Origin: an uncultured Alphaproteobacteria bacterium
Lineage (GTDB): Bacteria > Pseudomonadota > Alphaproteobacteria > RF32 > CAG-239
Reading direction: 5' to 3'
NCBI GenBank assembly: GCA_949297415.1
Contig: CASFSV010000016.1
Coordinates: 171 to 64,170 of the forward strand
DNA length: 64,000 nt
Below, piece after piece: positions 22,334 to 39,014 of this stretch. Made by a program: the position numbers and the translations under genes. Within the stretch, counting starts at the first letter, position 1, and every line of letters starts with the position of its first letter. Below the pieces are notes generated by a model. It had not been told where the DNA came from and ran no database searches. It saw only the letters and a program-made list of their open reading frames with translations.

Positions 22334-23092
22334 TTAATTTGTTTTCCGTTCAACCTGCTTATAATCAAGCACTGTAAAACCTAATGGATTTTTCAATCTT
22401 TCTCCAAAAGTTACTCTTTTAGATCTGTATTGTATTTTTACTGAAGCCAACCACACACTTAATCTTGGTGTTTCGTATTCTGGCATCATATCTTCAACTC
22501 TAAATTCAACTTGCCACCACATCTCTCCATTTTTACCACCAACTTCGGTTACTGATGATATCTTTATATTTCTGGTTATATTGTGATTGCGAATCAAATC
22601 AATTGCTTTATCAGCAAACCCTTCCCGAAATTGGCTATATACACCTGGAGAAGACATTTCTTGTATCGTGCTACCAGCCCCCCAACGTTGTTCCATTTCA
22701 TCAACATCATTAACAAACGTATTTCTCAGAAGAACATACTCTCTTACAAAAATTTCCGTCAAATACTTATATTCATATATATTTTTGACTGGATGAACAG
22801 TGTAAATTTGATCTTTTTTTTCTGCAAAACTAAACAAATATGGTTCAATTCGATACAAAGGCATAATGGTAAAAACTACATATGTCAGTATTAAGTTGCA
22901 ACACAGGCTAACAGCAAAAATTATAGCAAATGCTCGAGCTGTCCACAAATATCTTTTTTCTGTTGCATTTTCAACAACAACATCTGCACCACTTTTTTTC
23001 TGTGGATGGACGTTTCTTGGACGAACTTTTTCTGTTCCTTGTCCTTCCAGCAACAGTTTTTTTGTATTTTCTGAGGATACCTGTTCAACCAT
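22334..23092 (-). CDS. virB8: VirB8-family bitopic inner-membrane protein (copy adjacent to virB9)
   Basis: Cytoplasmic N-terminus, one TM (AFAIIFAVSLCCNLILTYVVFTI), then MPLYRIEPYLFSF and an NTF2-like periplasmic domain with FVREYVLLRNTF...WWQVEFRVED...WLASVKIQY...NPLGFTVLDY. 252 aa. Confidence 0.8.
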   Translation of the reverse strand: MVEQVSSENTKKLLLEGQGTEKVRPRNVHPQKKSGADVVVENATEKRYLWTARAFAIIFAVSLCCNLILTYVVFTIMPLYRIEPYLFSFAEKKDQIYTVHPVKNIYEYKYLTEIFVREYVLLRNTFVNDVDEMEQRWGAGSTIQEMSSPGVYSQFREGFADKAIDLIRNHNITRNIKISSVTEVGGKNGEMWWQVEFRVEDMMPEYETPRLSVWLASVKIQYRSKRVTFGERLKNPLGFTVLDYKQVERKTN

Positions 23093-23103: not shown

Positions 23104-23292
23104 CTAACTGATAGCCTTAAACCAATCTGGTAAAGTTTTAGGTAACTCTACTTCAATGCAAGCACATGGCGACAATTTCAATTCGTAAACATCTTTACCT
23201 ATTCCTACGGGTTCCGGCTCATAATATGTACCTACCAAATTGCATGCGGCTAATATTAAAACTGCAGAACCGATAATTATTGCTTTATACAT
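23104..23292 (-). CDS. virB7: Small lipoprotein in the VirB7 position
   Basis: 62 aa with lipobox LILAAC at residues 12-17. Lies between the two virB8 copies and upstream of virB9. The call rests on size, lipobox and position only. Confidence 0.55.
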   Translation of the reverse strand: MYKAIIIGSAVLILAACNLVGTYYEPEPVGIGKDVYELKLSPCACIEVELPKTLPDWFKAIS

Positions 23293-23434: not shown

Positions 23435-24193
23435 TTAAATCTCTATTTCACTTTGAAAATAACTATACACGACAAAACCTAAAGGATTTAGTAAACGTCG
23501 ATATGCGGTTCTTCTGTTTGGATCTACATACCCACGAATATTTGCAGTCCAAAATCTTTCTTCTATTATTGGTTCTACACTGGCTCGACGACTTAATCTA
23601 TTCTTCTTAAACGTAAAATCATATGTTTTAAACTCTATTTTCCATGTATTACTATTCTCACCGCCTGTGCGTTCTACTGAAAGTATCTCTACAGAACGAC
23701 TACTCTCCTTTTTTAACATTTCTTCTTTTAATTTGGGAAAAACTTTTTCAAATTCTTTATATACTGGATATGATGATAAGTATGAAACAAGTCCGCCCCA
23801 TAACCAACGATTATTCATTTCTTTTTCGTCTTTTATGTAAGTATTTCGTAACTCGACATATTGTTTCATAAAATTTATCATCATCTTTTCACGAGACTCC
23901 ATCCAGCGATCTACACGCTCTCTTTTAACTATAGAGTGAGAATCTGATAATTCTACAAATAATTGTGGATCTATTATAATTTCTGGGGCTAATTTTAATA
24001 TAGATAATGTTGCACAAACACCGTATAACAGCGATGCTGTTGCAAGCATCGCCATTAAACGGCTTATCCATTTATAATAAATCAATTTCGCTCTTTTTAC
24101 TTCTATAACATCCTCTGTTATAAATGCCGGCGCTTCTTTGGGTTTTCCCTTGTCTGCTATTTGCAATATTTTTTGATTTATTAAATTTACCAT
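23435..24193 (-). CDS. virB8: VirB8-family paralog
   Basis: Same length (252 aa) and architecture as 22334-23092: TM RLMAMLATASLLYGVCATLSIL, LAPEIIIDPQLFVEL, MKQYVELRNTY, TWKIEFKTYD, NPLGFVVYSY. Confidence 0.75.
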   Translation of the reverse strand: MVNLINQKILQIADKGKPKEAPAFITEDVIEVKRAKLIYYKWISRLMAMLATASLLYGVCATLSILKLAPEIIIDPQLFVELSDSHSIVKRERVDRWMESREKMMINFMKQYVELRNTYIKDEKEMNNRWLWGGLVSYLSSYPVYKEFEKVFPKLKEEMLKKESSRSVEILSVERTGGENSNTWKIEFKTYDFTFKKNRLSRRASVEPIIEERFWTANIRGYVDPNRRTAYRRLLNPLGFVVYSYFQSEIEI

Positions 24194-24213: not shown

Positions 24214-27200
24214 TTAGTATATCGGTGAATACGAAACTGCTTGGCTTTGATTATCCATTGATGTCAACCCTTCTTCAGTTGCCTCTAACGATGCTTCACG
24301 ATTTGCTAAAGCCTCTTCTTTAGCAGCTTTTACATCATCTGGAGTAGAATCCGGTTGAATAAATGTTACCTCATTCTGATCTTCTTCAAAGGAATCTAAG
24401 TAGTTTTGAATATTTTGGATGCGTTCCGTTACTTTTTCGCTACCTTCCATACTCTTAACTTCATTAAACCCTTCGTACTCGCCTTCTTCGTCTGTATATC
24501 CATTTAAGGCTTTTTTAATCGCCTCATCTTTTAAGTCATTGAGCTTGCAGAATATTGTTTCATAATACGAACCCGAATTAGATTGTCCGCAATTTATTGC
24601 ATCTTCGAAATATGCGTCATCCGCTGAATCCTTTGCTAATCCTCCATTGTCCATAATATATTGAGCACAAACACTATCTGCTTCTTCGCCACTTTCTCCA
24701 TTCACTGTTTCTCCATAATTGTGAAGCTGTTTGCATAAGGTCTGTAGAGCGTCATTAACATCTTTTTCATTCTTTTCTAATGAAGTCAGTGCTGTATGTT
24801 CAGCATTTACAGCCTCTAAGAATGAACCGATAAGATTCCGTTTGAACACAGCTGTATCTGCACGTTGGCGTTCAATATTATTTTCCTGATTATCTTCATT
24901 GAGTAAATATTCATAGATGTTCTTGAGTAGCGGTCGGTACTCTAAATTACCATTTAAAAACTGCCCAAGTTCGCTATATTTGGTGTACATCGGCTCTGAT
25001 GCACTACCTAAACTGCCTTGAAGAGCTTTCGACTTACTATCATCTTTAGCATCGTGATCCGCTAATAGGTGACGTACACCATTTTTATAAGCTTGAACTT
25101 CTTGACATTGTTCTGTCTTAGCTACACCCACAGGAATACTTGAACGTTGTTTGAACTGAATATCTCCTGCATTATCGCCTCCAGCAACATCAATATATTT
25201 ACCGCCTAATTGACATGGATATACACCACCTCTTCCGATAATAGCTCTGTAATGCCATTCTTCTGCACCATCAATTCCCTCGTTGTTTAGATATTTCTTT
25301 AATTTATCTAAACCATATGCTCGTTCAACAAACGTATGTTGATATTTCTCCGTTCCCGGTCTTAAATTTGGCGTTGCAAGCAAATATCTCCATACTTCAG
25401 GCAGATATTCAACTGCATCCGAAGTTCCTTTGTATTTCAAATCAACCAGAGCTGATATTGATGGTTTTCCTTCTTGTTGCGGAACATCATCATAATCTAA
25501 TGCACTAAAGTAAAATACTTCTCTTACCGGTGCCAAGTTTAACAGTGGTTTCCTTGGCGCACGATAGTCACGTCCGTCATTTTCATCAAAGGTGAATTTT
25601 TCATTGTCACGGCCAAACTGTACAAATGTGTTTCTTCCTGTATAATAACCTCTCGCAGGCAGTGATGCAAAGTAGTCATCATCTGTCGCAACATTATCAG
25701 GTATACCAAAGACTTCTTGCAAATCAATTTCCGCAGCTTCAAGTATGCTTGGATTTTCTGCTTGCTTCAAATCTTCCAATAGCTGATAGTGTCTGGCCGT
25801 TATGGTCTGTTCACCTTCTGCCACACCATCTGCAGCATAGTTACCGTGTTCATAAATGGCCGGATTTGCTTCGCTGCCTTCTGCACCTGTTACGCGGAAT
25901 TCTTCCATAACTTCCGTCACTTCTTCAACGGCTGCATCTATTTCATCCTTGATGATTTTATCGGCTTTGTTGATATATGCGTTATCGCCTATTGCCAACT
26001 CTGCTGTAGCTTCTTCTACGGCTTTTTCTTTTATTTTTACAGCTAGTGTTTCTGGCGTATATACGTCATCAGGTACGCCATAAGCTGCTAATGCTCCGGC
26101 TTCTACAACAAATTTTCTGACTACACCTTCGTCTCTTAATTTGTCGGCTGCTTTGCTTACCCATGTGCTATTCGAGAACCATCTTTTGTTAATAGTATCT
26201 TTAACAAGACCGGGCAGTTCATTTGCTACAGCTTCCTCGCTGTTTGAATCTCCATCGCCAAACATTACTCGAGTCATGGTCCAGCTGAGGTTATCGTATT
26301 TGTATTCGTTGCTATAGCCATCTCTGCATACTACTCCCTGAGGTCCATATCCTTTGCACCATTCACGGTCGCTAACCATTCTGTCCGGCTCGCTGCCGTC
26401 TTCTTTGGTTTCCAATTTTTCTTCAAATACTTTATTCGCTTCTTCTATTGCAGCTTGGCCTGCTTCTGACTTTTCAATATACTTTGCGGCAAATTTGGTT
26501 GCTGTTTCTTCAAGCTTTTGATTCAAGGTATCGATTTGCGTTTGCAGTACTTCCATTTTTGCTTTAGCATCATCTATCTTGGTGTTATATTCGGTAATTG
26601 TTTTATGCAAATTACCTACTTTTTGAAATTCTCCTTCGTTTTCATCTTCTTCCTCATCTGAGCTTTCAGCATCTGAAGTTGATTTATTTTCATATACTTT
26701 GTACCCTGCTTCAAGAAGGTATCCATATTGACCAAGAATTTCATCACTTGTATATTTCTGACTATAGCATATTGCATACGGATCATCACCTTCTTCACTA
26801 TTTTCTATTACAGGTGCATCTTCACAGATATATGCAAATTCAACTTTTAACGCTGGTATTTGACCTATTTTTTGCGCTAAAGTAGCTTTCTTAGTTTCAT
26901 CTTCAAATTTATCTATGTCTTCGCCTGCACCAATTGTTAGGGACTCTATTTCCTTTTGTAAACTCTTTGGTTTTGGATCTCTTTCATCCAAACGAGCTTG
27001 TAATTCCTCAACTCGTTTTTCCAATTCGTCTACTTGTGTAATAATTGCAGCTACACGTTTTAACGAGCGTTGGCGTTCTTCCACAGCGGCATTTTTATCA
27101 TCCGTGTAACTACTTAGTTTTTGCCCATATAGACTTCTTTGAGTTATTGTATTTTCAAGTTGTTGCTTCAGAGATTTTACATCTGCTTCGTACTGTTGTA

Positions 27201-29688
27201 TAAATGCTTTTAATTCTGCTTCAACTTGTTTACGCAAATCCAAAATTTCTTTGAAGTGGTCTGATGCGACAACTCTTCCGGCTGCGTGGGTATTTTCATA
27301 TAAATGGGCGTTTTGTTTATCTAGGTCTGTCTGACATGTTGCTTCGTATCCACCACTATTTTTCCAACTTGCAGTTACACCCGGAATGTATCTTTGAACA
27401 AGGAATTTGGTTGATAAATCCCATTCACCCGGACATTCCCCACTGTTATCCTCTATTTCTTCGTAAGAGCCTGCAGCCTTTGTAAAATCGCAGCCACCAG
27501 ATGGACTTTTAATCGTTTGGCTGTAACTTATCGGAACAGATACCTTCGTGCATCCTTCTTGTCTTGAGCCGGTAATTTGTCCGGAATTATTATCGCCTGT
27601 TACTGTACATGTCAATGGCACGGTATAATGGTAAAGAGCACCTTCCGCATCATATGCTGTACAGCTTTCTATTTTTGTTCCTGTACAAGTGCGTACATCA
27701 CCTGAAGTTTCAGGGCATGTTCCCGTGTAGCCCCGACACTCTTTATCGAAAGCTAGTTTTGTCGCATCCGTTGTTAACTCGCAAACAGATACCGCAGGCA
27801 AAACCTCTTTAATAGGACCAATGTTTCCATTTTTATCTGCTAAAACTTTTGCAACACGTTGTGACAGCATACCCTGATCCGCTGTTTTGATTATCATGCG
27901 AATATTGCGGTATTTATTGCGCAAATATTCTGTTTGCATATTCTTTTGGTCATTCCATGGCTCAAATTTTAATCTGCCATTTTCGGTCAACTTCATTATT
28001 TTATCATAACCGATACGCCAGTTCTTTTCGGCCTTAATTCTGTTATCGGTTTCTATTTGTTCTGCTTGATTACCATTTTTCAAATAATCTGTGTCATTGT
28101 ATACACGTTCATTTTTTACTGTTGCATAGTCTTTTTCTAATTTTGGTTCATAAGATACCTTCGGATCTCCTTCTGGATCCATGTCTGAGGTTACTGTATC
28201 TAATACGCAGGCAAACATTGTTGTACTTGTTACTTTTTTTCCGGTACTATCCGTATATGTGCATGGTTCTCCATATGTATATCCATCTGGGCACCTTTCA
28301 TAAAATCCACTACACTCCTCGGAATCTGTACCAATTAACTTGTCTGTTGTGTCTTCTTGATACTCTAAAATAACCTCTTTTGACAAACCACCACGAGCTT
28401 CGTGATCATTGACAACAGATGGTTTGCTTTCGCCATACCATATAGAATCTCCCTGACCGTTGCTGTATCTATTCAAGAAACTTAATACGCTGGCTTCACT
28501 CTTTTCCAGAACTTTCATCATTCTTTCATGGATTTCTTTGGCTTTCAGATATTTTCTGTATTGAGTTTTATATTCTGCTAATTGCGATTTTAAATTGTGC
28601 AGATTCATCGCCTGATTGATTTGCTCATCTATCGGCTGTATTTTTCCTAAAATTTTCGTATCATCTGTGTTTTTTATTTCTGTTTTATCTTCATTTTTAT
28701 CCGGACAGTTCTTTCCTCCGTTCTCACATTCTTGACTACGAATATAATCGCCCCCTAGCATCGTACCTGTTGCTAAAGTATAACCCCTGCTTTCATTATA
28801 AGCGAATCTATAACCTGTATCAATGTAGTCTTCTGCAGATGATTGATTTTCAGGCTCTATTGGATCTACACCGTTAATTTGTGCTGCTGATATAAATTGA
28901 GCTTCCGTTCCCGTTAAATCTTCAACTATACGCATTAGTCTATCATATACGGTAGTAACTATATAAGCATTCATTACTTCTCCGTATTGTCCTGGGTTGG
29001 TACTATCTTCAGGATCGCCTTCACTATCTAAATTTTCTTTTTGGGGATCAACGTAGGCCATTTGTAAGCCGAAAAATACGCAATGCTCCGCCATCTCGTC
29101 TTCTGTATACATGCCTTTTTGGCAATGATCTAGGCGTTCTATGGTTTTCTCTACTAACGCAAGATAATTTTCTGTTACGCGGCCAGTTAGATATGTTTCC
29201 ATAGCAATGTCTTGCATATATTCATCAGCTTTGCGTTTATAAGCTTGTTTTACAGCGGGATAATTGTCTGGATAGCTACTCTTTGGAGGATATATGAAAA
29301 ATAGAGTGTGAAATGCGTTAAAGTTCTCTTCTTCATCTAATCCGCCTTTTGTAATCTTTAATAAATCACTATTTTTTAATTCGCCTTTTCCTGGTGCTTT
29401 ATTTTTACCTTTTTCTGTATATTTATTAAATTTTGTTTTTAAAAAGGCTTGTCCCTTTTTTAAAATTTCCAATTTTTGACTATTTAACTCTGACTTTATA
29501 GTCTGAGCCTGACGATATGCGGCTTGTATATTCGACACAATCTTATTGGCATTGCCAGGAACATCTATTTCTATATCCCACGGCATCGGTGGTAAAAACA
29601 AAAATGCTTTAGCTTCCTGTATCCCTGCTCCTAAGATGAATACACTTAGAACCAGACTTTGTAGCACTCTTAATTGTTTTCTAACCAT
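24214..29688 (-). CDS. Giant (1824 aa) secreted protein with VirB5/TrbJ-like N-terminus, Cys-rich modules and long acidic coiled-coil regions
   Basis: Signal peptide ...LGAGIQEAKA, then FLFLPPMPWDIEIDVPGNANKIVSNIQAAYRQAQTIKSELNSQ, the same N-terminal pattern as the four upstream paralogs. SD GGGAGA lies 6 nt before the ATG. No TM segments. Confidence 0.6.
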   Translation of the reverse strand: MVRKQLRVLQSLVLSVFILGAGIQEAKAFLFLPPMPWDIEIDVPGNANKIVSNIQAAYRQAQTIKSELNSQKLEILKKGQAFLKTKFNKYTEKGKNKAPGKGELKNSDLLKITKGGLDEEENFNAFHTLFFIYPPKSSYPDNYPAVKQAYKRKADEYMQDIAMETYLTGRVTENYLALVEKTIERLDHCQKGMYTEDEMAEHCVFFGLQMAYVDPQKENLDSEGDPEDSTNPGQYGEVMNAYIVTTVYDRLMRIVEDLTGTEAQFISAAQINGVDPIEPENQSSAEDYIDTGYRFAYNESRGYTLATGTMLGGDYIRSQECENGGKNCPDKNEDKTEIKNTDDTKILGKIQPIDEQINQAMNLHNLKSQLAEYKTQYRKYLKAKEIHERMMKVLEKSEASVLSFLNRYSNGQGDSIWYGESKPSVVNDHEARGGLSKEVILEYQEDTTDKLIGTDSEECSGFYERCPDGYTYGEPCTYTDSTGKKVTSTTMFACVLDTVTSDMDPEGDPKVSYEPKLEKDYATVKNERVYNDTDYLKNGNQAEQIETDNRIKAEKNWRIGYDKIMKLTENGRLKFEPWNDQKNMQTEYLRNKYRNIRMIIKTADQGMLSQRVAKVLADKNGNIGPIKEVLPAVSVCELTTDATKLAFDKECRGYTGTCPETSGDVRTCTGTKIESCTAYDAEGALYHYTVPLTCTVTGDNNSGQITGSRQEGCTKVSVPISYSQTIKSPSGGCDFTKAAGSYEEIEDNSGECPGEWDLSTKFLVQRYIPGVTASWKNSGGYEATCQTDLDKQNAHLYENTHAAGRVVASDHFKEILDLRKQVEAELKAFIQQYEADVKSLKQQLENTITQRSLYGQKLSSYTDDKNAAVEERQRSLKRVAAIITQVDELEKRVEELQARLDERDPKPKSLQKEIESLTIGAGEDIDKFEDETKKATLAQKIGQIPALKVEFAYICEDAPVIENSEEGDDPYAICYSQKYTSDEILGQYGYLLEAGYKVYENKSTSDAESSDEEEDENEGEFQKVGNLHKTITEYNTKIDDAKAKMEVLQTQIDTLNQKLEETATKFAAKYIEKSEAGQAAIEEANKVFEEKLETKEDGSEPDRMVSDREWCKGYGPQGVVCRDGYSNEYKYDNLSWTMTRVMFGDGDSNSEEAVANELPGLVKDTINKRWFSNSTWVSKAADKLRDEGVVRKFVVEAGALAAYGVPDDVYTPETLAVKIKEKAVEEATAELAIGDNAYINKADKIIKDEIDAAVEEVTEVMEEFRVTGAEGSEANPAIYEHGNYAADGVAEGEQTITARHYQLLEDLKQAENPSILEAAEIDLQEVFGIPDNVATDDDYFASLPARGYYTGRNTFVQFGRDNEKFTFDENDGRDYRAPRKPLLNLAPVREVFYFSALDYDDVPQQEGKPSISALVDLKYKGTSDAVEYLPEVWRYLLATPNLRPGTEKYQHTFVERAYGLDKLKKYLNNEGIDGAEEWHYRAIIGRGGVYPCQLGGKYIDVAGGDNAGDIQFKQRSSIPVGVAKTEQCQEVQAYKNGVRHLLADHDAKDDSKSKALQGSLGSASEPMYTKYSELGQFLNGNLEYRPLLKNIYEYLLNEDNQENNIERQRADTAVFKRNLIGSFLEAVNAEHTALTSLEKNEKDVNDALQTLCKQLHNYGETVNGESGEEADSVCAQYIMDNGGLAKDSADDAYFEDAINCGQSNSGSYYETIFCKLNDLKDEAIKKALNGYTDEEGEYEGFNEVKSMEGSEKVTERIQNIQNYLDSFEEDQNEVTFIQPDSTPDDVKAAKEEALANREASLEATEEGLTSMDNQSQAVSYSPIY

Positions 29689-31046
29689 TGGTAGTCTCCC
29701 GCATTTACTTCATAAGAATCTTCAACATCTGTTACTGCACTATTTGCAGTATTGGCCTCTTCTATTGCTTTATCAACATCTTCTTTTGTCAGTATGTATT
29801 TTTCTAAATTATACTCTAAATATGCTCCGTTTGGCACCTTGATTGCCTCTACGCTTAATAATTTCTTGGCTGCCATATATTGTAATCTTGCACTTTGTAA
29901 TTTTGCGTACATCAATAATGCTTTCATACTTTCTATTCTTGTTGCTGAGTATGACGATATTGCTTCCAATTCTCCCGTTGATGCCGGCGTATTTTGGAAC
30001 ATTTCATCTATAATCTCACTTCTCACAGGTATCTCTCGTCTTAGTGTAGCCGAAACCTGTAATAAATGTGCAGCACTGTTCACTAATAAGAAGCGACGTT
30101 CTCTTGTTACGGCATCTATTTTGGTTTGGTGTTCAATACGTGCATCCGCGCCAGCTGACGATAAATCTTTAGGATTATAAAAATATCTGTCTATAAAATC
30201 TTTATAATCTTCCTCAGTCGGAGAGAAGTTGTCTACTATATCTTCGTCATCCCACTCGGTTTCATCTCCTCCTGATTTATTCATTATTTCTTCTGCTCCA
30301 CCGTCGCCATCTGCTTCTTCTATTTCATTATCCATCTCTTCTAGGCGCTTTTCATATAAGGCATATTCCGGATCCTCTGACGTACCTACTTTTGCTTTTT
30401 CTTCTTCAAGTGCTCCTTTCTGAGCTTCTAAATCACTTAGCAATTCTTCTAATTCTTTGCAGACTGTTTCTAGTTCTTTATATTCCATTTCTGCTTTCAT
30501 GTAGTCATCAAGAGCCTTTGGTTCTTCTGCCAGATTTCCTTTTACACTCTCATAGTAACTCTTCTTTTGTTCTACCTCTACTGATTTTTGTGTCTTCTCA
30601 CTTAATTTTTGGGTGTATACCGTTTCTGTTTCTTGTATACTTTCCTCCATTATTGCTATTTTTTCATCATAGTAGGCATTTTTAGTTTCAGTTTGCGCCT
30701 CTTTTTCTGCTTCTATTTTATCTCTATTTTTCTTCTTTGTACCATCAACTATTTTTTTCATCTTTACTTTAAGTAAATTCTTACCATAGCTTGTTGCATA
30801 TTCTTCCGCAATACCAAATAGCTCTTCTTTATTAAAACCTTGTGAACTCATTTGTTTTACTTGTGAGACTTGTTGAGTAATCTTGGTTGTAGCATCCGTG
30901 ATTTTCCCTACCCATTCACTTATCTTGGCTGCCAATGTCGGAAAGTCCAAAATCAATGCTTGGGCATTTTGTGGTGCGCTCGCGGTTAATATTGTAACTA
31001 TGCAGATGATTGCTATTTTCTTCTTCATTTCTCTTCTCCTATTCAT
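29670..31046 (-). CDS. Secreted acidic coiled-coil protein, VirB5/TrbJ-like N-terminus (probable start 31028)
   Basis: Signal peptide MKKKIAIICIVTILTASAPQNAQA, then LILDFPTLAAKISEWVGKITDATTKITQQVSQVKQM. AGGAGA precedes the second Met (31028). E/K-rich coiled coil and acidic stretch. Confidence 0.55.
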   Translation of the reverse strand: MNRRREMKKKIAIICIVTILTASAPQNAQALILDFPTLAAKISEWVGKITDATTKITQQVSQVKQMSSQGFNKEELFGIAEEYATSYGKNLLKVKMKKIVDGTKKKNRDKIEAEKEAQTETKNAYYDEKIAIMEESIQETETVYTQKLSEKTQKSVEVEQKKSYYESVKGNLAEEPKALDDYMKAEMEYKELETVCKELEELLSDLEAQKGALEEEKAKVGTSEDPEYALYEKRLEEMDNEIEEADGDGGAEEIMNKSGGDETEWDDEDIVDNFSPTEEDYKDFIDRYFYNPKDLSSAGADARIEHQTKIDAVTRERRFLLVNSAAHLLQVSATLRREIPVRSEIIDEMFQNTPASTGELEAISSYSATRIESMKALLMYAKLQSARLQYMAAKKLLSVEAIKVPNGAYLEYNLEKYILTKEDVDKAIEEANTANSAVTDVEDSYEVNAGDYQWLENN

Positions 31047-31737
31047 CTGCTTTACGTGTTTGTAGAGTTAATTCAGCCGTTGCTCCAGCACTCGTCATGT
31101 AAGCCTTCATCTCTAATATTCTATTTAGTCTTTGTTCTGTTGCTATGGCGACGATGTTTTGAGCATTCAAAATCTCATCCATGTTTTCATTCTTAAATTC
31201 TGCTTGATATAATGAACCATCTTCTACCAAAATACTCTGGCGTGCAGATACTCCTTTAGCAAATAATAATGCTGTATCATCTGCTACTATTGCATTTATA
31301 TATCGGCGGTTTTCTGTGGTCTTATCTATATCTTCTCCTTGTCCCCTTTGGTAGATATATGTATTTTCAACAGTTTGAGCTAGACTTCCATCGCTTTTCT
31401 TTTTCAAATCCCCCTCTTTTAATTCCTCTGCTCCCGGCATAACCTTTATTTCAGTTAGACTAGTTACATAATTCTCAGAATCTTTGGCAAATGCCTCTAT
31501 TGCTTTTGCATCACACTTTTTGGGATTTTTATAGCAGTTACTTGCAAGATCAAACCCTTGTCTGGCTCTTTTTTCTATATCTCTCATTTTCTTTTGAAGC
31601 TCTTGAGCTTTGTTTTCTATGTCTTTATATAATTCAAGTATTGATTCTACTTTTGCCATAATATCAAATATTGCATAGGCCTCTCTTGTGTATGCAATTA
31701 ATGAGAAAAACAGAAGTATACATAGTTTCTTTCTCAT
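31039..31737 (-). CDS. virB5: VirB5/TrbJ-sized (232 aa) secreted helical protein
   Basis: Signal peptide MRKKLCILLFFSLIAYTREAYA, then IFDIMAKVESILELYKDIENKAQELQKKMRDIEKRARQGF. Its size and position after virB4 match VirB5/TrbJ. The start overlaps the upstream stop (TAATG). Confidence 0.55.
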   Translation of the reverse strand: MRKKLCILLFFSLIAYTREAYAIFDIMAKVESILELYKDIENKAQELQKKMRDIEKRARQGFDLASNCYKNPKKCDAKAIEAFAKDSENYVTSLTEIKVMPGAEELKEGDLKKKSDGSLAQTVENTYIYQRGQGEDIDKTTENRRYINAIVADDTALLFAKGVSARQSILVEDGSLYQAEFKNENMDEILNAQNIVAIATEQRLNRILEMKAYMTSAGATAELTLQTRKADE

Positions 31738-33932
31738 TAGCTCTCTCCCTCAGCTTTTTGCCCGAAGTAATTATAGTTAAATGTTTCCAAATCTTTTAAT
31801 ATCTCAGTCTGCTGATTTTGGGCATCCGCATCTACAATACTGAGTATTTGTTGTGTTGTATAATAATTGATTTGAGCACCTATGGAATAATCATCTTTTG
31901 TTGTCGTACTTTCTTTTAATCCATCTTGAAGACTTACTATGTTTTTATCTTCACTTGGATTTGGTAATTTCTCTGGATCAATATAATCTAAGCTTGATTT
32001 GTAGTTATTTATGACTGCTAATGTTAAATTATTAAATGCCGAATCATTGTATGCTTTTCTTTGTCTTTCCTTTCCTGCCTTTTTTTCCATTTCTTTATCA
32101 TCTCCTGTTCCTATACTGGCTTCTAAGGCATATTTATATAGGCAATCTGCTATATTTTTTTCTTTTTCTGTAATTGCTTCTATGTCCGTTTTTTTCTTTT
32201 CTGATACAGAAATATCTTTAGCTCTTAAACCACATTTATATAATATCACGTTAGAAAAAATGGCTTTATCAATTACTGCCTTACTTTCATCTCCATCTCT
32301 GTCATCTGATTGCATCGTTCCCCAATTTCTGTTTGTTGCTTCAACAAAATCTGAATCCCTTCCATCTAAATATAATGTTACTCCTTTTTCAAAATCTTGT
32401 ATCATACTTTTGGCTCTTTTTAACGCATCTATTCTCCGTATCTCACTCCATAACTTTGGGGACTCTATATCTGTCATCCCCATTAGTTGATATCCGGCTC
32501 GTGTATTATCTACATCTTTCAGTGTTTTTCTTAAAACATATAATGTTCCTTTGTTGCTATCATTATCCGGCTCTAAATTTCCCCATGTTGCTGAAAATTG
32601 TTTTGCTTTACTCACACTTACAATATTTGCGATGCTATAGTCTTCTCTTAAATGTTTATATATTCCATCTTTTTGGTAATCTTTATATAAGGCTTCCTCA
32701 TATATTTTAGGATATAAATCTACCTCTGCTTTTGCTTTTACAACACATTCTCTTAATGTGCTTGGATCTTTTTCAATTTCTGCAACATCTAAGCCATTAC
32801 ACACTAATTCTGCAGGTAATAAAAAACTTTTATCTGCATCGGTAGCATATACTCCTTTTAAAAGCTGTCTTTCTTGATTTGAACTATAGTTAAATACATA
32901 TAACTTTTTTATTGTTGTTACGTTACTTGCCTCCTCACTTCCATCTGAATACCCTTTTGAATTACTTATACTATTCATGATATCTTCGCTAAAGGCATCT
33001 ATTTTATCTGCAATCTTTTGCGCATCCGCAGCAATGCCGTTTATTGTATTTGTATCTATTCCTACATCTAATCCGGCTATAGTTTCTTTAAATGTTTCTC
33101 CTGCTTGGGTTAATCCTGCTCGATCTATATTACCTGCATAATAGTCACTAATGGCTTGACTATACTCATCAAATGCTGCAGCTATTTGCTCATTATATAA
33201 AGAATCAAACTCTTCTTTTACAGAGTTAATTATACTTGTTACATTTGTTTTTAACTCTTCAATATCATTTTTTATATCGTTAGCTTCTTCATTTAATCTC
33301 GTCTTATCCTCATCGCTTAAATCGCCATTTTCATTTAAACTATCCATGAGCATATCAATTGCAGTTTGTGCATTATCCATAGACTCTTCTATTGCAGCTT
33401 CGGCTTCATTTAAAGCCTTATCTACTTCTTCTTTATTTGCATTTGTTTCATTTTCTGCTTCATCTAATGTATTCTGTACCTCTTCCTCATTTGCTCCAGA
33501 ATCTACTTGGCTTTCGATAGTTTCTGTTGTATTTTCAGCATTCTCTTTTTCTTTATTTAATTCTTCGTTTAGTGTTTCATCGACATTTGTTGCTATATCG
33601 TCAAGATTTTCTGTTGTTTCTGTAATGTTATTGGTTATTTTGGTCACATTATCTTTGATATTGGCTATTGTTCCTTTTAAATCTGCTGCATATTTTCTAA
33701 TTGACGAAACTTGATCCCCTATCGTCTTTATTGTATTATTTATATTATCTAATTGACTTTTAGCATTGGATATTTGGTTTAACCCCGTTGTAATACTATT
33801 TACAAAAGAAACTATTTCCGTTAAATCTATTACTGGCCATATAAAAGCTTTTGCCGGGCGCACATTTAATGTTAGACAAAGACAGCCTATCATTGCCACT
33901 TTTATAAAATTGGATACTATCCTTTTTATCAT
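31737..33932 (-). CDS. Secreted 731-aa protein with VirB5/TrbJ-like N-terminus, N/E/D/T-rich coiled coil and C-terminal globular region
   Basis: Signal peptide ...LTLNVRPAKA, then FIWPVIDLTEIVSFVNSITTGLNQISNAKSQLDNINNTIKTIGDQV. SD AGGGAGGG upstream. Confidence 0.55.
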   Translation of the reverse strand: MIKRIVSNFIKVAMIGCLCLTLNVRPAKAFIWPVIDLTEIVSFVNSITTGLNQISNAKSQLDNINNTIKTIGDQVSSIRKYAADLKGTIANIKDNVTKITNNITETTENLDDIATNVDETLNEELNKEKENAENTTETIESQVDSGANEEEVQNTLDEAENETNANKEEVDKALNEAEAAIEESMDNAQTAIDMLMDSLNENGDLSDEDKTRLNEEANDIKNDIEELKTNVTSIINSVKEEFDSLYNEQIAAAFDEYSQAISDYYAGNIDRAGLTQAGETFKETIAGLDVGIDTNTINGIAADAQKIADKIDAFSEDIMNSISNSKGYSDGSEEASNVTTIKKLYVFNYSSNQERQLLKGVYATDADKSFLLPAELVCNGLDVAEIEKDPSTLRECVVKAKAEVDLYPKIYEEALYKDYQKDGIYKHLREDYSIANIVSVSKAKQFSATWGNLEPDNDSNKGTLYVLRKTLKDVDNTRAGYQLMGMTDIESPKLWSEIRRIDALKRAKSMIQDFEKGVTLYLDGRDSDFVEATNRNWGTMQSDDRDGDESKAVIDKAIFSNVILYKCGLRAKDISVSEKKKTDIEAITEKEKNIADCLYKYALEASIGTGDDKEMEKKAGKERQRKAYNDSAFNNLTLAVINNYKSSLDYIDPEKLPNPSEDKNIVSLQDGLKESTTTKDDYSIGAQINYYTTQQILSIVDADAQNQQTEILKDLETFNYNYFGQKAEGES

Positions 33933-33993
33933 ATCGCGCCCTCCCTAATAATCTTCATTATGTACTAATTATCTTAAACTTATTGATAATATA

Positions 33994-35187
33994 TTAATTC
34001 TTTATCTTTTTTTTCACGTTTATTTCCGCTACTATTGCTTTTAGATCATTTTTGATGTCCTCTGTTGCCTTACGTTGTTGCTCTAGTGTTTTTTTATCTA
34101 TACTTGTATCTATCTCCGCAAATGCAACCTTTAATTCTTCTCCCTTTTTGAGAACTTCATCTTTACTTGTATCTCCTCTAAAGTAGCTTTCTATTGTCTT
34201 TTTGTAATTACTTATTCCATCTATTAGTTTGTTTTGGCATTCTATATTATAGCTCTCTTTTGCATTCTCTATAAGTGCTATTGTTTTATCTGACATGTTT
34301 TGACACTTTATTCTCAAAGATGCTACTTTTTGAACTAAATCTTCCTTATCTTTATCTTCTAGTTGCTCGGTTGTTTTAATCGATTTTTCTAACCTATCTA
34401 ATATTTTGTTTGTACTTTGAGAAGATTTGTTCAAAGTGCTTATCGCTGTATCTAAAACATCATTCATTTGAGCTATGACTTGTTTGCTATCCTCTTCAAA
34501 CGCCTCTATATTTCCCAGAATTTCTTCTTGTTGTATGAGCATTGCTTCATTCTCAGCGATTTCTTCTTCCTCCTCCTCCTCTTCTACCGGTTCAGTAGCA
34601 GTCTCTTGCTTTTCGGCTTCCTCTTGTTCCTTTTTCTTTTTTTCCTCTTCTCTTTTTGCCTTCTCAGCCTCATTCTTTGCATTTACTTTTTGCATACCTT
34701 CATCGGCTTTTTTGGCTGTCTCTTGTGCATCATCTATTCCTGAACTACCTTTATCTATATAGTCTTCGCCTTGATTTATAATATTTTGTGTATCATTTAT
34801 TATATCATTAAGCTCTCCGCCTAATGCATCATTCGTTGCATCAAGCCCTTTATTTACATCTTCCGGAATTTCCATATCTGTTCCTAAATTTTCATTAAGA
34901 CCGTCTACGGCACTGTTTGCAACATCTTGTATATTTGATACTGTATTTCTTAAATCTTGGCCAAATTGTGCAATATTATCTATACTCTGCCCCATAGCCT
35001 GAAAAGCATTTTTCATTTCTGTCATTTGTGCCTTTGTTTCTGATAAAGCACTCATAGAAGTACTTACATTTGAGATAATTTCAGGTACTTCTCCAAAATC
35101 CATTACTGGCCAAAATGCTTTTGCAGGTTGATTGGTGACTATGGCACCGCTTAAAACTATAATACTTAAAATCTTAGCTTTTACCAT
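33994..35187 (-). CDS. Secreted coiled-coil protein with VirB5/TrbJ-like N-terminus (ORF-track start 35217; 35187 preferred)
   Basis: MVKAKILSIIVLSGAIVTNQPAKA, then FWPVMDFGEVPEIISNVSTSMSALSETKAQMTEMKNAFQAMGQ. A strong SD GAGGGGGA precedes the Met at 35187. Contains poly-Glu EPVEEEEEEEEIAE. Confidence 0.6.
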   Translation of the reverse strand: MVKAKILSIIVLSGAIVTNQPAKAFWPVMDFGEVPEIISNVSTSMSALSETKAQMTEMKNAFQAMGQSIDNIAQFGQDLRNTVSNIQDVANSAVDGLNENLGTDMEIPEDVNKGLDATNDALGGELNDIINDTQNIINQGEDYIDKGSSGIDDAQETAKKADEGMQKVNAKNEAEKAKREEEKKKKEQEEAEKQETATEPVEEEEEEEEIAENEAMLIQQEEILGNIEAFEEDSKQVIAQMNDVLDTAISTLNKSSQSTNKILDRLEKSIKTTEQLEDKDKEDLVQKVASLRIKCQNMSDKTIALIENAKESYNIECQNKLIDGISNYKKTIESYFRGDTSKDEVLKKGEELKVAFAEIDTSIDKKTLEQQRKATEDIKNDLKAIVAEINVKKKIKN

Positions 35188-35265
35188 AATTCCCCCTCTT
35201 AAATAAATAATATTCAACGTTGTAAATTGTACTACATTTTTTTGTTTTTGTCAACAAATTTATAG

Positions 35266-37713
35266 TTAAACCCCATTGAGATATTTTGTTACGAATCCAT
35301 CTTCTCCAAATTCTTTTACAAGGCTTTCAACAAGCAATACATTTTTAATACCAGAATTGTATAATTTCAGATATGGTCCTAATCCACTCAAGTTTACATC
35401 AAGAATTACAGACTCTCCTTCCCCGTTCTCTCCGGCATCCGGACGTTTTAATAATATAGCATACGGGCAATCTCTGTAGGATTTACCACTAATGAAATCA
35501 TATTCGCTGTCCGTTAAATTCCATTTTGCATATGATTCTGGTGTTGCTTGGGTGTTGCGGAAGAATATCATTGTCTTACATTGACCTCTTACCGCATCGC
35601 CAACACCTAATGAATCTACAATGTTTGGCTGTTGAAACGCACAAAGATAGGCCTGGCGTTTTTTACGACCTTCTTGCAACCCTTTGATGAAGTTATCCCT
35701 AAACATTTCATGTTTTAACATCGGCGCCGTTTCATCAATCATAATCAGTGCAGGACTACCTGTTTCTGTACTCTCTGATTGTATTCTGTGCATAATGTAG
35801 CTAATTGATGCTGCGGCAAGTACATCATCGTCAAAAATCTCTGTAAAGTCAAATGCCACAAATCTATTTGAACTCAAATCCAAACTATCGTGCTCTGCAT
35901 TAAAGATATTTCCGTATTGGTCAGGGTTTACCCATCTATATAATTCACGGCGCATTGTTCCCGTTGGTGAAAAGCAACTTTTGTACAAATTCTTCAAAAC
36001 TCTCTCTTCTGGACGCAGATAATCAAATGCCGTCGTTACTGCTCGAGCTGCTTCTCTTTCCGATAACGCATCTTTTGCCATAGTAATCGCTTTTAACCAG
36101 TTACGTAAAAACGCTCTATTGCTCATCGTATCTCGTGAATCGAACGGATTTAATGATACATTTTTTCTATCACCGCTAAAGCCAACATATGCACCCTGAA
36201 CCATGTGAGTAAATATTTCTGCACCGCGGTGTCTATCAAAAAAGTATACTTTCAAATCACCGTGCCGCATAGCTTGACCGGCTAAAAACGTCAGCAATGT
36301 TGTTTTACCTTGTCCGGTCGGTCCTACAATACAACAGTGCGCAACCGCTGATTCCGCCGCTGATATATGAAATTGGAATCTATATGGAGAGCCACTCATT
36401 GTCCTAAATACCGTAATAGCACCTTCACCCCAGTCACTTCGTGGCAAACCTGTCGATAGTTGCTCAAATGAAACAGCTAATGAAACTATCCTTGATAAAT
36501 AGAAATACGTTCTTCCACAAGTATCATATCCCGGAAATTGATTGAAAAATGTCGCTTGTGCTATCCAATTTTCTCGTACCGGCGTTACACTGAACAAACG
36601 ACATATTCTTTGAACTTCACTTTCACCAAATTCTATTTCTTTAATCGAATCTCCTTTTAATATAAAACTCATGGAATATTCTACTAAAGACTGGTGATCC
36701 GCATCGCTTTCTTCGATTGCGGCCAAAGCTTCGCTATATTGCGCCACTACATCTGACGAAAAACTGGTTACTTCTGCCATTTTTTGTTGTTGCACCAAAA
36801 TCATTCGTGCTTTAGGCTTAAATAAGGGATGAATATGATGAAGAACCGTTAATTCGCAATCTATTGCCAATAATGATGATATCATTCCTTCATCCATATA
36901 ATCCCCTGAATTGCGTATTCCCATTGTCAGGGCAAATTTTTCTTTCCCTCCCGAAAAGAATTTTATTATACCTTCTTCTCCCGTAAAATGAATACCGTCA
37001 GAGCTCAGCATTTCTTTTAATTGGAACCCTTGCGCCCCTCTAACTTTGGGCAATGGTTTACTTATTGGATTTAAAATTCTTACAAACGGATATACCGGAC
37101 TCATTTCTGCTGAGCTCTCATCATCCTCGTACAAAACTTTTATTCCGTAATCATTCAAATTAGCCATTACCGATTGTGACGCAAAGTTCAAATCTTTTAC
37201 CGCATCTTTTCTATCTTCTATTGATAAAATAATGTAGTGGTCATTTTTATAAACACGACTTAAATTTTCTCGCCATGTGTCATCTACTATTTTAAGCCAT
37301 TTATTTCCAAAATCCGCTTTATTTTTCTCCATCGGAACGCGGTCACGTATTGTTATCACTCGGCATGTTACTTGCAAATCCGCCATATTATCGAGCCAAG
37401 ATTTTCTGGCTTCAAACATTGATAATACCGTTTCATCTCGCGCCGATGTTAAATCAACACCCTCAACTTTAAATACGCGTACATATGTGCCATTACTGCA
37501 TCTTAGCGTTGAACCATCCGATAATAAACTATCAAACGGCAAAAAATCCGCAACCCTTGATTCACTCGGTTGTGGCAATACCCATGTCCCTATCTTTGAA
37601 ACTAATGAAATTGCTATGGCTGCTGCGGATATAATACCTAAGGTTGCAACAATCGCGTCTGCGCTTTGCAAACCAGCCATAAATAACGTATAAAAATCAA
37701 AATCAAGGTTCAA
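35266..37713 (-). CDS. virB4: T4SS ATPase VirB4
   Basis: 815 aa. Walker A IVGPTGQGKTTLLTFLAGQ, Walker B ALIMIDETAPML, AFQQPNIV. Overlaps the virB3 stop by 11 nt. Confidence 0.93.
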   Translation of the reverse strand: MNLDFDFYTLFMAGLQSADAIVATLGIISAAAIAISLVSKIGTWVLPQPSESRVADFLPFDSLLSDGSTLRCSNGTYVRVFKVEGVDLTSARDETVLSMFEARKSWLDNMADLQVTCRVITIRDRVPMEKNKADFGNKWLKIVDDTWRENLSRVYKNDHYIILSIEDRKDAVKDLNFASQSVMANLNDYGIKVLYEDDESSAEMSPVYPFVRILNPISKPLPKVRGAQGFQLKEMLSSDGIHFTGEEGIIKFFSGGKEKFALTMGIRNSGDYMDEGMISSLLAIDCELTVLHHIHPLFKPKARMILVQQQKMAEVTSFSSDVVAQYSEALAAIEESDADHQSLVEYSMSFILKGDSIKEIEFGESEVQRICRLFSVTPVRENWIAQATFFNQFPGYDTCGRTYFYLSRIVSLAVSFEQLSTGLPRSDWGEGAITVFRTMSGSPYRFQFHISAAESAVAHCCIVGPTGQGKTTLLTFLAGQAMRHGDLKVYFFDRHRGAEIFTHMVQGAYVGFSGDRKNVSLNPFDSRDTMSNRAFLRNWLKAITMAKDALSEREAARAVTTAFDYLRPEERVLKNLYKSCFSPTGTMRRELYRWVNPDQYGNIFNAEHDSLDLSSNRFVAFDFTEIFDDDVLAAASISYIMHRIQSESTETGSPALIMIDETAPMLKHEMFRDNFIKGLQEGRKKRQAYLCAFQQPNIVDSLGVGDAVRGQCKTMIFFRNTQATPESYAKWNLTDSEYDFISGKSYRDCPYAILLKRPDAGENGEGESVILDVNLSGLGPYLKLYNSGIKNVLLVESLVKEFGEDGFVTKYLNGV

Positions 37714-37993
37714 ATTTATGCCCTTTCACTTTATATAAATTTTGCGGCACCATATTTGTTTGCCCAAAGGCCTGTATCATTCCTGATAAGTGAGGATCTT
37801 TTGCTCCAAGCGCAACAACGATTAAATGCCCCAACACAATACTTATAATAAACACAAGCGGGTTTACGTCGCCCATTCCGATAGCCATAAACATGAAAGG
37901 TATTTGCAAACCTGCATTCAGCGCGGTCGGCAAAACTGGTCCCCAAAATAATTTGGGCGGATTTGCTACTGCTTTTAGTATTATATCTTTCAT
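37703..37993 (-). CDS. virB3: VirB3-family small inner-membrane protein
   Basis: 96 aa. LFWGPVLPTALNAGLQIPFMFMAIGM plus a second TM NPLVFIISIVLGHLIVVAL. Lies immediately upstream of virB4. Confidence 0.8.
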   Translation of the reverse strand: MKDIILKAVANPPKLFWGPVLPTALNAGLQIPFMFMAIGMGDVNPLVFIISIVLGHLIVVALGAKDPHLSGMIQAFGQTNMVPQNLYKVKGHKFEP

Positions 37994-38428: not shown

Positions 38429-38439
38429 CTCATTTTCTC

Positions 38440-38760: not shown

Positions 38761-38786
38761 CTCAAAATCTCCCCTATACTGTTTGT

Positions 38787-38795
38787 ATTATATCA
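38787..38795 (-). promoter_or_regulatory. Candidate extended -10 promoter element (TGATATAAT on the minus strand) in front of virB2 paralog 2
   Basis: The reverse complement of 38781-38800 reads atttgTGaTATAATacaaac. It lies 27 nt upstream of the ATG at 38760 and downstream of the terminator at 38975-38993. The -35 is weak (tagcta). Confidence 0.4.
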
Positions 38796-38871
38796 CAAAT
38801 CTATACAAATAGCTAGTAAAAAATTTGCTTCTTACATTATTCCATCATTCTGTTTTTACTTATTTTATTTA

Positions 38872-38893: not shown

Positions 38894-38967
38894 GTGTCCG
38901 TTTTTCTATTACATCTTTCTATATATTAAAGCTTCCATTTTATTTTTATTAAATCAGATCTTAGCAA

Positions 38968-39000: not shown

Positions 39001-39014
39001 TTATTTTTTGGTTA

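Follow-up and report, generated by a model that had tools for sequence, protein, structure and literature searches.

Five predicted secreted proteins, two with a VirB5-like N-terminus, between virB4 and virB8 in a type IV secretion operon of uncultured gut Alphaproteobacteria

A block of five consecutive genes (A, B, C, D and E), found between virB4 and virB8 in a type IV secretion system (T4SS) operon of uncultured gut Alphaproteobacteria (with relatives that include 'Ca. Scatocola' and CAG:495), may well constitute the 'VirB5 slot' of a chromosomal, lineage-wide T4SS, in which four Sec-exported protein families replace a single VirB5. VirB5 is normally one small tip protein of about 220 aa in P-type T4SS pili. 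Among the essential extracellular parts of the T4SS, it is the one least understood; pilus nucleation depends on it, and it is believed to be the first component to touch the target cell. More than 100 species in one common, uncultured gut alphaproteobacterial lineage have the system described here, and no publication on this T4SS variant was found in the literature searched.

Organization of the locus

The five genes form an uninterrupted run on the minus strand (24214-35217) of the window, i.e. the whole 64-kb stretch of DNA that was analysed. The ORFs and the Pfam matches of the flanking genes confirm what the initial annotation had reported, namely five consecutive ORFs of the sizes given below between virB4 and the first virB8. 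The operon comprises, in this order, three virB2 genes, virB3, virB4, A to E, virB8, a lipoprotein gene, a second virB8, virB9, a gene for a 2093-aa protein, virB10 and virB11:

38072..39395, minus strand: three VirB2/TrbC pilin genes in tandem (PF04956 in all three)
37703..37993, minus strand: probable virB3, 96 aa, without a Pfam match, 60-99% identity in relatives
35266..37713, minus strand: virB4, 815 aa, directly upstream of A (PF03135; TIGR00929 at 378 bits)
33994..35217, minus strand: gene A, ORF of 407 aa, predicted secreted member of the VirB5 family whose middle region is acidic, coiled-coil and poly-Glu
31737..33932, minus strand: gene B, 731 aa, with a predicted VirB5-family N-terminus
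31039..31737, minus strand: gene C, 232 aa, predicted secreted, all-helical, with a CxxPxxC pair; a small family of its own
29670..31046, minus strand: gene D, 458 aa, predicted secreted, acidic and coiled-coil in its middle part, with a conserved helical region towards the C-terminus
24214..29688, minus strand: gene E, 1824 aa, giant predicted secreted Cys-rich protein
23435..24193, minus strand: first virB8 paralog (PF04335)
23104..23292, minus strand: candidate VirB7, a 62-aa lipoprotein ORF with a LAAC lipobox read from the sequence
22334..23092, minus strand: second virB8 paralog (PF04335)
8693..22314, minus strand: remaining operon, encoding VirB9/CagX, the 2093-aa protein, VirB10/TrbI and VirB11

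Genes A to E are tightly spaced and translationally coupled within one operon: B and C have one base in common, C and D overlap by 8 nt, D and E overlap by 19 nt, and a gap of 20 nt separates E from virB8. The start of A lies 49-79 nt past virB4, a placement that is the same across all related loci. The true start of A is most likely the ATG at 35187 (giving 397 aa) and not the TTG at 35217; the A orthologs begin with MVK, and a TTGACA-17-TACAAT site lies ahead of A (35254->35226).

In the remaining part of the operon, VirB9/CagX (651 aa) carries a SPOR domain, both the 2093-aa protein and VirB10/TrbI (1451 aa) contain beta-flower repeats, and VirB11 measures 326 aa. Neither the window nor the operon strand of 138 related loci (+/-10 kb) contains a virB6-like polytopic ORF, no VirD4 coupling protein is encoded within the window, and no entry-exclusion (eex) gene adjoins A or B. 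The window also holds no further virB5 besides A and B, which, like the position right after virB4, speaks for the VirB5 assignment of these two.

Features common to the five proteins

All five proteins are predicted to be exported by Sec and to carry cleavable A-x-A leaders; the hydrophobic leaders end in A-K-A, A-K-A, A-Y-A, A-Q-A and A-K-A in A to E, respectively. The N-termini quoted in the initial annotation matched the translations exactly, and the pattern it had described (an A-x-A leader end followed by a hydrophobic/Pro/Asp motif and a helix) is kept in the orthologs. This N-terminal layout is beyond chance: it is retained in the orthologs of every family (more than 100 related loci), and in A, B, C and E few blocks are conserved as well as mature residues 1-40. 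The composition reported for the payloads was likewise correct: A contains a poly-Glu run, the residues Asp and Glu (D+E) make up 16-20% of all five proteins, and protein E contains 28 Cys, of which many are invariant. In Rickettsiales, virB4 is followed by five virB6 genes; that A to E are five VirB6 paralogs of this kind was rejected, since none of the five proteins has a TM-like segment beyond the leader.

The five genes had been described as tandem paralogs. This holds for A and B, the only pair found similar when the five proteins were compared by BLASTP (27% over 184 aa, 66 bits), but C, D and E belong to separate families that are connected by weak N-terminal profile links only. Judged from their sequences, A to E fall into four families that are old and distinct from one another (A/B, C, D and E); paralogy can be demonstrated for A and B only. 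When the five proteins were scanned directly against Pfam and NCBIfam, nothing but coiled-coil noise came up, without PF07996 or TrbJ at the N-termini, and a toxin or enzyme domain was found in none of them with these scans and profile searches.

Similarity of A and B to VirB5

The mature N-terminal modules of A and B are located as follows:

34978..35115, minus strand: A module (FWPVMDFGEV...AMGQ), aligning with TrwJ residues 25-64 and VirB5 profile columns 7-49
33708..33845, minus strand: B module (FIWPVIDLTE...TIGDQ), aligning with VirB5 by hhalign

The A module, the best-conserved block of this protein, consists of a hydrophobic-Pro-x-x-Asp motif and then a helix of about 40 residues that ends at Gly; in B, residues F30, W32, P33 and G72 are invariant among 25 orthologs. 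With hhalign, A and B matched each other at 99.3%, and both matched a set of 12 plasmid VirB5 sequences in register (A at 95.7% and B at 84.6% probability; reversed decoys reached at most about 30 and internal-window decoys at most about 14). The pooled A/B N-terminal window scored 38 against VirB5 and internal decoy windows 8-14, whereas the N-terminal windows of C, D and E scored 10-14, no better than decoys. The expectation that all five N-termini would align with VirB5 profiles was thus borne out for A and B and not for C, D and E.

Another line of evidence came from a search of the A/B family profile against 177,635 PDB sequences, in which R388 TrwJ (7o3v_A) was the best unbiased match (E=1.7e-5). 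A profile built from the mature part only ranked TrwJ second among these sequences and aligned it exactly from its own mature N-terminus. PF07996 was matched (E<=1) by 40 of the 83 A/B-type members, and three A orthologs (L026, L015 and L057, at 27.5, 27.0 and 24.7 bits) were at or above its gathering cut-off of 24.7 bits, with alignments from profile position 1-3; the window's own five proteins gave no PF07996 match at E<=1. An HMM made from the 12 mature VirB5 sequences gave no better than marginal matches among the related loci (the strongest, to an A ortholog, at E=7e-4), the sensitivity of single-sequence searches being too low. By these comparisons, the N-termini of A and B are homologous to the N-terminal helix found in TrwJ and in further plasmid VirB5 proteins. 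The similarity to VirB5/TraC/TrwJ is limited to the first 45-125 residues or so.

Beyond the N-terminus of B, residues 90-325 make up a long helical bundle and residues 360-715 a conserved C-terminal domain of no recognised fold; PF26039 is annotated on some B orthologs. The AF2 model of B had a mean pLDDT of 73, with values below 50 over residues 14-89, which correspond to the VirB5-like helix. Foldseek returned neither a VirB5 chain nor another PDB fold match below E=0.05 for this model: the best hits were designed bundles (E=0.055), and ClyA-family toxins followed at E 1-4. The model of C (pLDDT 51) was too poor for its Foldseek matches to have meaning, and included no VirB5 match.

The families of C, D and E

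The corresponding modules in the other three proteins are:

31552..31671, minus strand: C mature N-terminal module (IFDIMAKV...RQGF), an in-register hhalign match to the D N-terminus at 64-83%
30834..30956, minus strand: D mature N-terminal module (LILDFPTLAAKI...SQGF), at the centre of the weak network of N-terminal similarities
29464..29604, minus strand: E mature N-terminal module (FLFLPPMPWDIEIDVPGNANKIVSN...), strongly conserved across 51 orthologs

For C, D and E, Pfam, PDB-sequence and profile comparisons all gave no similarity to VirB5, so that the proposed VirB5/TrbJ-like N-terminus, which hhalign, TrwJ and the PF07996 orthologs support for A and B, did not extend to these three. PF07996 matched none of 56 C members and was absent from the 25 families listed for D, and the profiles of C, D and E found only coiled-coil proteins among the PDB sequences. 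We searched 1.84 billion proteins with the C profile and obtained 77 representatives, all C-like, with no bridge from C to VirB5 among them. C is the only one of the five with the canonical VirB5 size. A TrbJ_Ti match in E (residues 808-903, E=0.011) was rejected, as it sits in an internal coiled coil, and the merging of all families by iterated HMM searches of the related loci was discounted, as it was driven by signal peptides and coiled-coil composition.

It is possible, though we would not favour it, that derivation from VirB5 is confined to A and B and that C, D and E are unrelated, lineage-specific structural subunits of the periplasm or outer membrane with a generic N-terminal resemblance. 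The lack of detectable VirB5 similarity in these three proteins and the exclusively C-like result of the large search speak for such an origin. The machine is also expanded elsewhere (the enlarged VirB10, the giant repeat protein, the SPOR-containing VirB9 and the two VirB8 proteins), and species-specific components of the Cag or Dot/Icm type would be comparable. Against it stands a network of N-terminal matches, all in register: the N-terminal window was top-scoring in every pairing, with scores of 24 for C-D (80-83% probability), 21-22 for A/B-D (64-74%) and 20 for D-E (54-63%), compared with at most 15 for internal helical decoy windows. C and D share a second, colinear match, the N-terminal blocks are selectively conserved, and some clade-2 E orthologs begin with GIPTIDG, the VirB5 motif itself. 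E and A/B are linked weakly, in register, with scores of 11-22. The links centred on D could reflect a common constraint on the start of a mature secreted helix instead of descent, and there is no more than a weak indication that C, D and E share an ancestor with VirB5.

Synteny and rate of evolution

More than 100 species-level genomes show synteny for the A-E block, and every related locus examined has it between virB4 and virB8. Order and sizes of A-B-C-D(-E) are kept in 31 clade-1 loci. In clade 2, about 60 complete arrays have the arrangement VirB5-like protein (300-800 aa), protein of about 220 aa, protein of about 440 aa and protein of 1200-1850 aa. E is the final gene ahead of virB8 in all relatives and measures 1200-2030 aa. 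The initial annotation had suggested an amplification like that of the Bartonella Trw system, which we reject because of this synteny of distinct orthologous families: the block consists of four anciently conserved families plus one duplication (A/B), in fixed order.

Identity within the block was low. At a VirB4 identity of 82-89%, identity was 24-33% for A, 29-40% for B, 31-44% for C and 31-41% for D; for E, the scan for related loci with the VirB8 alignment yielded clade-2-type loci only and no close relatives. By these comparisons the A-E block evolves much faster than the core machine, with the N-terminal block conserved and the remainder of each protein diverging very fast. The fast-evolving, predicted exposed components are candidate determinants of contact with the host or with partner cells.

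Possible role of the block

We consider it quite plausible that A to E together make a stalk or pilus-tip module of several proteins, with a VirB5-type N-terminal helix as its basis and with large exposed payloads. Cleavage by signal peptidase would expose the N-terminal helix as the assembly element, and A and B would be positioned at the top of the periplasmic stalk and later at the tip of the VirB2 pilus, by analogy with the VirB5 pentamer of R388. The VirB5 pentamer is mounted on VirB6 with its N-terminal part projecting outward, and is pushed out at the pilus tip (PMC9259494). The C-terminal payloads, namely the acidic coiled coils together with B's folded C-terminal domain and perhaps the giant, Cys-rich E, would face outward for contact with the target cell or host surface. 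Given the same N-terminal layout, the simplest reading is that C, D and E would be accessory subunits that co-assemble with A and B. Several observations count against this stalk or tip module: the window's own five proteins have no PF07996 or TrbJ match at the N-terminus, C, D and E lack similarity to VirB5, virB6, the platform for VirB5, is missing near the locus, virD4 is missing from the window, and the VirB5-like helix of B was modelled unconfidently, with no VirB5 structure among the Foldseek hits.

A further step, and an unlikely one in our estimate, would be that A to E constitute a single hetero-oligomeric tip or priming complex, with distinct subunits, each having a VirB5-type N-terminal helix, in the positions of the five identical VirB5 copies of plasmid systems and E as a giant adhesin. 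If true, an abundant uncultured gut lineage would possess a T4SS counterpart of the minor-pilin/PilY1 complex.

We also regard it as improbable that the five proteins, or a subset of which E would be an example, serve as Sec-dependent T4SS cargo released in two steps, with the VirB5-like N-terminus as a docking signal that mimics the tip. Such a role would be in line with the Sec leaders on all five proteins, with their fast evolution and large, variable payloads and with the absence of VirD4 from the window, although VirD4 may be encoded elsewhere in the genome. There is a precedent in pertussis toxin, which is released in two steps by Ptl and was proposed to replace VirB5 (PMC12857230). Machine parts nevertheless fit better than cargo, because a stable four-family set in fixed order, translationally coupled within a structural operon, is maintained in more than 100 species; the five proteins moreover lack a toxin or enzyme domain. 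That A to E are surface or periplasmic proteins merely located inside the operon, without T4SS function, is very improbable in view of their invariant placement, the overlapping reading frames and the homology of A and B to VirB5.

Understood as a stalk or tip module, the extension of A and B to 400-730 aa and the addition of three more secreted families of like N-terminal layout would show how the tip can be rebuilt for large payloads. As natural fusions, A and B also lend themselves to finding out which segment of VirB5 acts as the assembly module.

Comparison with known systems

Like VirB5/TraC/TrwJ (PF07996), A is encoded directly after virB4 and has a Sec leader. The mature proteins start similarly, with a hydrophobic-Pro-Val-x-Asp segment and then a long helix (AQG|IPVFDGT in TrwJ, AKA|FWPVMDFGE in A and AKA|FIWPVIDLTE in B). 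In contrast to these proteins, A and B are extended 1.7- to 3.2-fold and contain acidic coiled coils, B has an extra conserved domain of about 350 residues, and the TraC fold (a three-helix bundle with a globular appendage, 1R8I) was not recovered in the models of B, unconfident over this helix, and of C, poor overall. A and B also differ in having no adjacent virB6 or eex and in being joined by the secreted families C, D and E.

The locus resembles the Bartonella Trw system in its multiple VirB2 genes (three here), in having more than one VirB5-like gene, in the absence of VirD4 from the locus and in its fast-evolving, presumably surface-exposed components. Bartonella Trw has multiple variable copies of the same genes, whereas the present locus has a fixed multi-component set with A and B as its sole paralogs.

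A functional analogy may be drawn with the type IVa pilus, whose priming complex of four minor pilins and the large adhesin PilY1 is thought to prime the fibre and remain at its tip (PMC8833165). Both systems would combine several small subunits that have an N-terminal assembly helix in common with one very large protein, all encoded together. The analogy is limited to function, as machinery and fold are unrelated and A to E have no class III signal peptide.

The Helicobacter pylori Cag system is comparable in being an expanded machine with a CagX-type VirB9 and a giant repeat-bearing VirB10, and in having several secreted, mostly helical, non-canonical proteins (CagL, CagI and CagH) in the VirB5 role. 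CagH, CagI and CagL have a common C-terminal motif, whereas the element common to A to E is N-terminal. The family profile searches returned no Cag or Dot/Icm protein among the PDB sequences. Legionella IcmX, a long VirB5 analogue, illustrates that a VirB5-like protein can be far larger than 220 aa.

The A-E block within the T4SS operon

Between virB4 and the first virB8, a T4SS operon encloses five consecutive ORFs, here called A to E:

33994-35217 (-), A, 407 aa
31737-33932 (-), B, 731 aa
31039-31737 (-), C, 232 aa
29670-31046 (-), D, 458 aa
24214-29688 (-), E, 1824 aa
35226-35254 (-), near-consensus sigma-70-like site (TTGACA-17-TACAAT) in the virB4-A gap

Three genes for VirB2/TrbC pilins, a probable VirB3 (96 aa) and VirB4 precede the block. 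After it come VirB8, a 62-aa lipoprotein ORF and a second VirB8, and then, in order, a SPOR-domain VirB9/CagX, a beta-flower repeat protein of 2093 aa, VirB10/TrbI (1451 aa) and VirB11. Each of the five proteins has a hydrophobic leader with an A-x-A end and otherwise lacks membrane-like segments; all are acidic (D+E content 16-20%), and E contains 28 cysteines. B and C abut, C/D and D/E overlap by 8 and 19 nt, E is separated from virB8 by 20 nt, and no terminator-like site was found on the minus strand inside the block. The ORFs, their leaders and their tight packing bear out the initial annotation, which described five secreted ORFs inside a T4SS operon: the arrangement is real and non-random. 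A probably starts at ATG 35187 rather than at TTG 35217, since its orthologs begin MVK... and the sigma-70-like site lies just upstream. That site suggests an internal promoter for the block, in a region where the total count of such sites was not above that in shuffled controls.

VirB5-type N-terminus of A and B

Iterated HMMs merged all families and were discounted as evidence. Leaders and coiled-coil composition drive this merging, so leaders were cut and hhalign was run on leader-less ortholog alignments, with two controls, the reversed sequences and helical windows taken from inside these proteins. The reference set comprised 12 annotated plasmid VirB5 genes, including R388-type TrwJ. The motif at the plasmid mature N-termini (AQG/IPVFDGT, AQ/IPVTDGA and GQG/IPVIDQT, cleavage at the slash) recurs in A (AKA/FWPVMDFGE), in B (AKA/FIWPVIDLTE) and in the product of the distant clade's first gene (AQ/IPVIDVSS). 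A matched VirB5 with a probability of 95.7% (score 50.6, columns 6-49 versus 7-50) and B with 84.6%, while reversed controls scored at most 22; with pooled alignments the N-terminal window scored 38 (96%) and decoys 8-14. Against all PDB sequences, an 83-member A/B-type N-terminal profile ranked TrwJ (7o3v_A; E=1.7e-5, zero bias) second, after a low-complexity designed bundle. The leader-less profile again placed TrwJ second among 177,635 sequences, at E=0.051 and with the alignment beginning exactly at the TrwJ mature N-terminus. When the members were scanned singly against Pfam, 40 of the 83 matched the VirB5 family PF07996, and three A orthologs were at or above its cut-off of 24.7 (27.5, 27.0 and 24.7 bits), aligning from position 1-3 up to 92-126. 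By the hhalign, PDB profile and Pfam results together, A and B are VirB5-family proteins at their N-terminus, as was initially proposed.

An AF2 model of B, built from a 25-sequence alignment (mean pLDDT 73), resolved two parts with confidence, a long helical bundle at residues 90-325 and a C-terminal domain that is mostly helical:

31737-32855 (-), C-terminal domain of B, residues 360-715, pLDDT about 80-90, four invariant cysteines

This domain had no PDB fold match; some B orthologs carry the precomputed Pfam label PF26039. The model was unconfident (pLDDT below 50) exactly where the VirB5-like helix lies, at residues 14-89, and a Foldseek search of this model against PDB gave nothing below E=0.05, the matches being designed bundles and, at E 1-4, ClyA-family pore-forming toxin components. 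The model of C was poor (pLDDT 51) and its structural matches meaningless. With the helix of B and the model of C this uncertain, fold comparison, a check proposed initially, neither supports nor refutes the VirB5 reading.

Relationship of C, D and E to A and B

The only clear BLASTP match within the block was A-B (27% over 184 aa, 66 bits; hhalign probability 99.3%), that of A with E being marginal. The N-termini were also compared pairwise.

hhalign comparison of N-terminal 50-column windows
C-D: score 24, probability 80-83%
A/B-D: score 21-22, probability 64-74%
D-E: score 20, probability 54-63%
C-E: score 15
A/B-C: score 15
A/B-E: score 11-12

Internal decoy windows scored at most 15. In every pairing the N-terminal window was the top window, in register from the mature N-terminus; C-D had a second weak match colinear with the first, and some clade-2 (more distant) E orthologs start with GIPTIDG..., the VirB5 motif itself. 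These in-register matches and E orthologs suggest, and do not establish, a common ancestry of all five N-termini with D as hub. Of the proposed five paralogs, only A and B are demonstrably so.

The proposed membership in VirB5 is not demonstrable for C, D and E: the Pfam scan gave no PF07996 signal in C (0/56 members) or, among the 25 families listed, in D, profiles of all three matched PDB sequences only as coiled-coil noise, and a whole-library profile search with C returned 77 representatives, all C-like. On a rival reading, VirB5 descent is confined to A and B and the other three are unrelated structural subunits specific to the lineage; this is to be taken seriously, if rather unlikely.

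Conservation across related loci

A VirB4 search retrieved 58 loci from MAGs of uncultured gut Alphaproteobacteria (human, ruminant, chicken, rabbit), including 'Ca. Scatocola', CAG:495 and 'Acetobacter sp. 46_36', and a VirB8 alignment search 80 more. Some records with this alphaproteobacterial locus (L035/L105, L072, L040, L045) bear the title Lachnospiraceae, Lactobacillaceae or Acetobacter; misbinning or misnaming in public MAGs is the probable cause. The A-B-C-D order and sizes were kept in 31 closer loci (VirB4 82-99% identical). In clade 2, read from ~60 complete arrays (VirB4 about 70% identical), the virB4-virB8 interval holds a 300-800-aa protein, one of about 220 aa, one of about 420-480 aa, sometimes an additional pair (about 180 and about 450 aa) and, always last, a 1200-1850-aa protein. 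By this constancy of order and size across both clades, the block comprises four orthologous families of long standing, A/B, C, D and E, and is no recent tandem amplification; A and B are a duplication within the window's clade.

The block evolves much faster than the core machine: at a VirB4 identity of 82-89%, A retains 24-33% identity, B 29-40%, C 31-44% and D 31-41%. The leading 40 residues of each mature protein nevertheless belong to its most conserved parts: their mean pairwise identity is 0.56 in E, 0.49 in B, 0.48 in C and 0.41 in A, where the middle of the protein has 0.09-0.31.

Neighbouring genes

Several features around the block were also observed:

38072-39395 (-), three tandem VirB2/TrbC pilin genes
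38970-38998, perfect 12-bp-stem GC-rich hairpin with A/T runs at its flanks, just after the first VirB2 gene
23104-23292 (-), 62-aa ORF between both virB8 paralogs, with a LILAAC lipoprotein signal (LAAC lipobox)
9754-22314 (-), three unusual core components: VirB9/CagX, 2093-aa protein, VirB10
41150-50136 (+), type IVb (Tcp/Bfp-like) pilus operon: TcpQ, secretin, PilO, T2SSE ATPase, T2SSF, bundlin-like pilin
50150-51097 (-), second T2SSE ATPase gene, after the pilus operon
52426-54174 (-), DsbA-like thioredoxin gene adjoining a 4-TM protein gene

The hairpin may be an attenuator or terminator setting pilin stoichiometry. In clade 2 (L027-L055, e.g. L034, L038, L041 and L055) the third VirB2-like gene lies within an 850-1780-aa ORF upstream of virB3, and appears to be a pilin domain fused to a very large extension. 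The 62-aa lipoprotein is a candidate VirB7. The SPOR (peptidoglycan-binding) domain is at the C-terminus of VirB9/CagX; the 2093-aa protein, encoded between virB9 and virB10, is built almost wholly from beta-flower repeats, with 22 stretches assigned to PF21785; VirB10 has such repeats as well. The pilus operon neighbours the T4SS operon and diverges from it on the other strand. The DsbA-like gene may be relevant to disulfides in Cys-rich secreted proteins such as E.

Possible role of the A-E proteins

VirB5 of the R388 machine is present as five subunits seated on a VirB6 pentamer, with their N-terminal parts projecting outward like those of pore-forming proteins; as the VirB2 pilus grows, the complex is pushed out at its tip (PMC9259494; PMC12857230). 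The present proteins have A-x-A Sec leaders, operon coupling, selective N-terminal conservation and, in A and B, a VirB5-type helix. On the likeliest reading, the cleaved N-terminal helix would be an incorporation element placing A and B, and possibly C, D and E, at the stalk or pilus tip. The payloads (large acidic coiled coils, B's C-terminal domain and Cys-rich E) would then be exposed and contact the target surface, and this would account for how fast they diverge. The tip model is weaker on two counts: the window encodes neither virB6 (a polytopic membrane protein) nor virD4, and a search of 10 kb around the operon in 138 related loci revealed no VirB6-like ORF; either the T4SS genes are distributed over several loci, or another component takes the place of VirB6.

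The same leaders would also serve Sec-dependent cargo, and it is conceivable, if improbable, that some or all of the proteins are released as pertussis toxin is by Ptl, the N-terminus being a docking mimic. That they are passengers without relation to the machine is very improbable, being contradicted by the invariant synteny.

Comparison with known systems

No publication on the T4SS of this lineage was found in the literature searched. VirB5/TraC/TrwJ (PF07996) is the closest family, by gene position, leader and the N-terminal helix common to A and B, but these two are 1.7-3.2 times longer and without a demonstrable TraC fold. The likeness to Bartonella Trw, seen initially as an amplified repertoire of the same type, is limited to multiple VirB2 genes and two VirB5-like genes and was wrongly drawn: a fixed four-family set with an order conserved across loci is different in kind. 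The expanded machine recalls Cag (CagX-type VirB9, and a giant repeat-bearing VirB10 that brings CagY to mind), and VirB5 analogues of great length are known, IcmX among them; no sequence link to Cag or IcmX was found. The minor-pilin/PilY1 priming complex of type IV pili offers a functional analogy, and the block would gain in interest if A-E form one heteromeric tip complex. A-E is best read as a VirB5 slot that has become a conserved module of several proteins carrying very large payloads.
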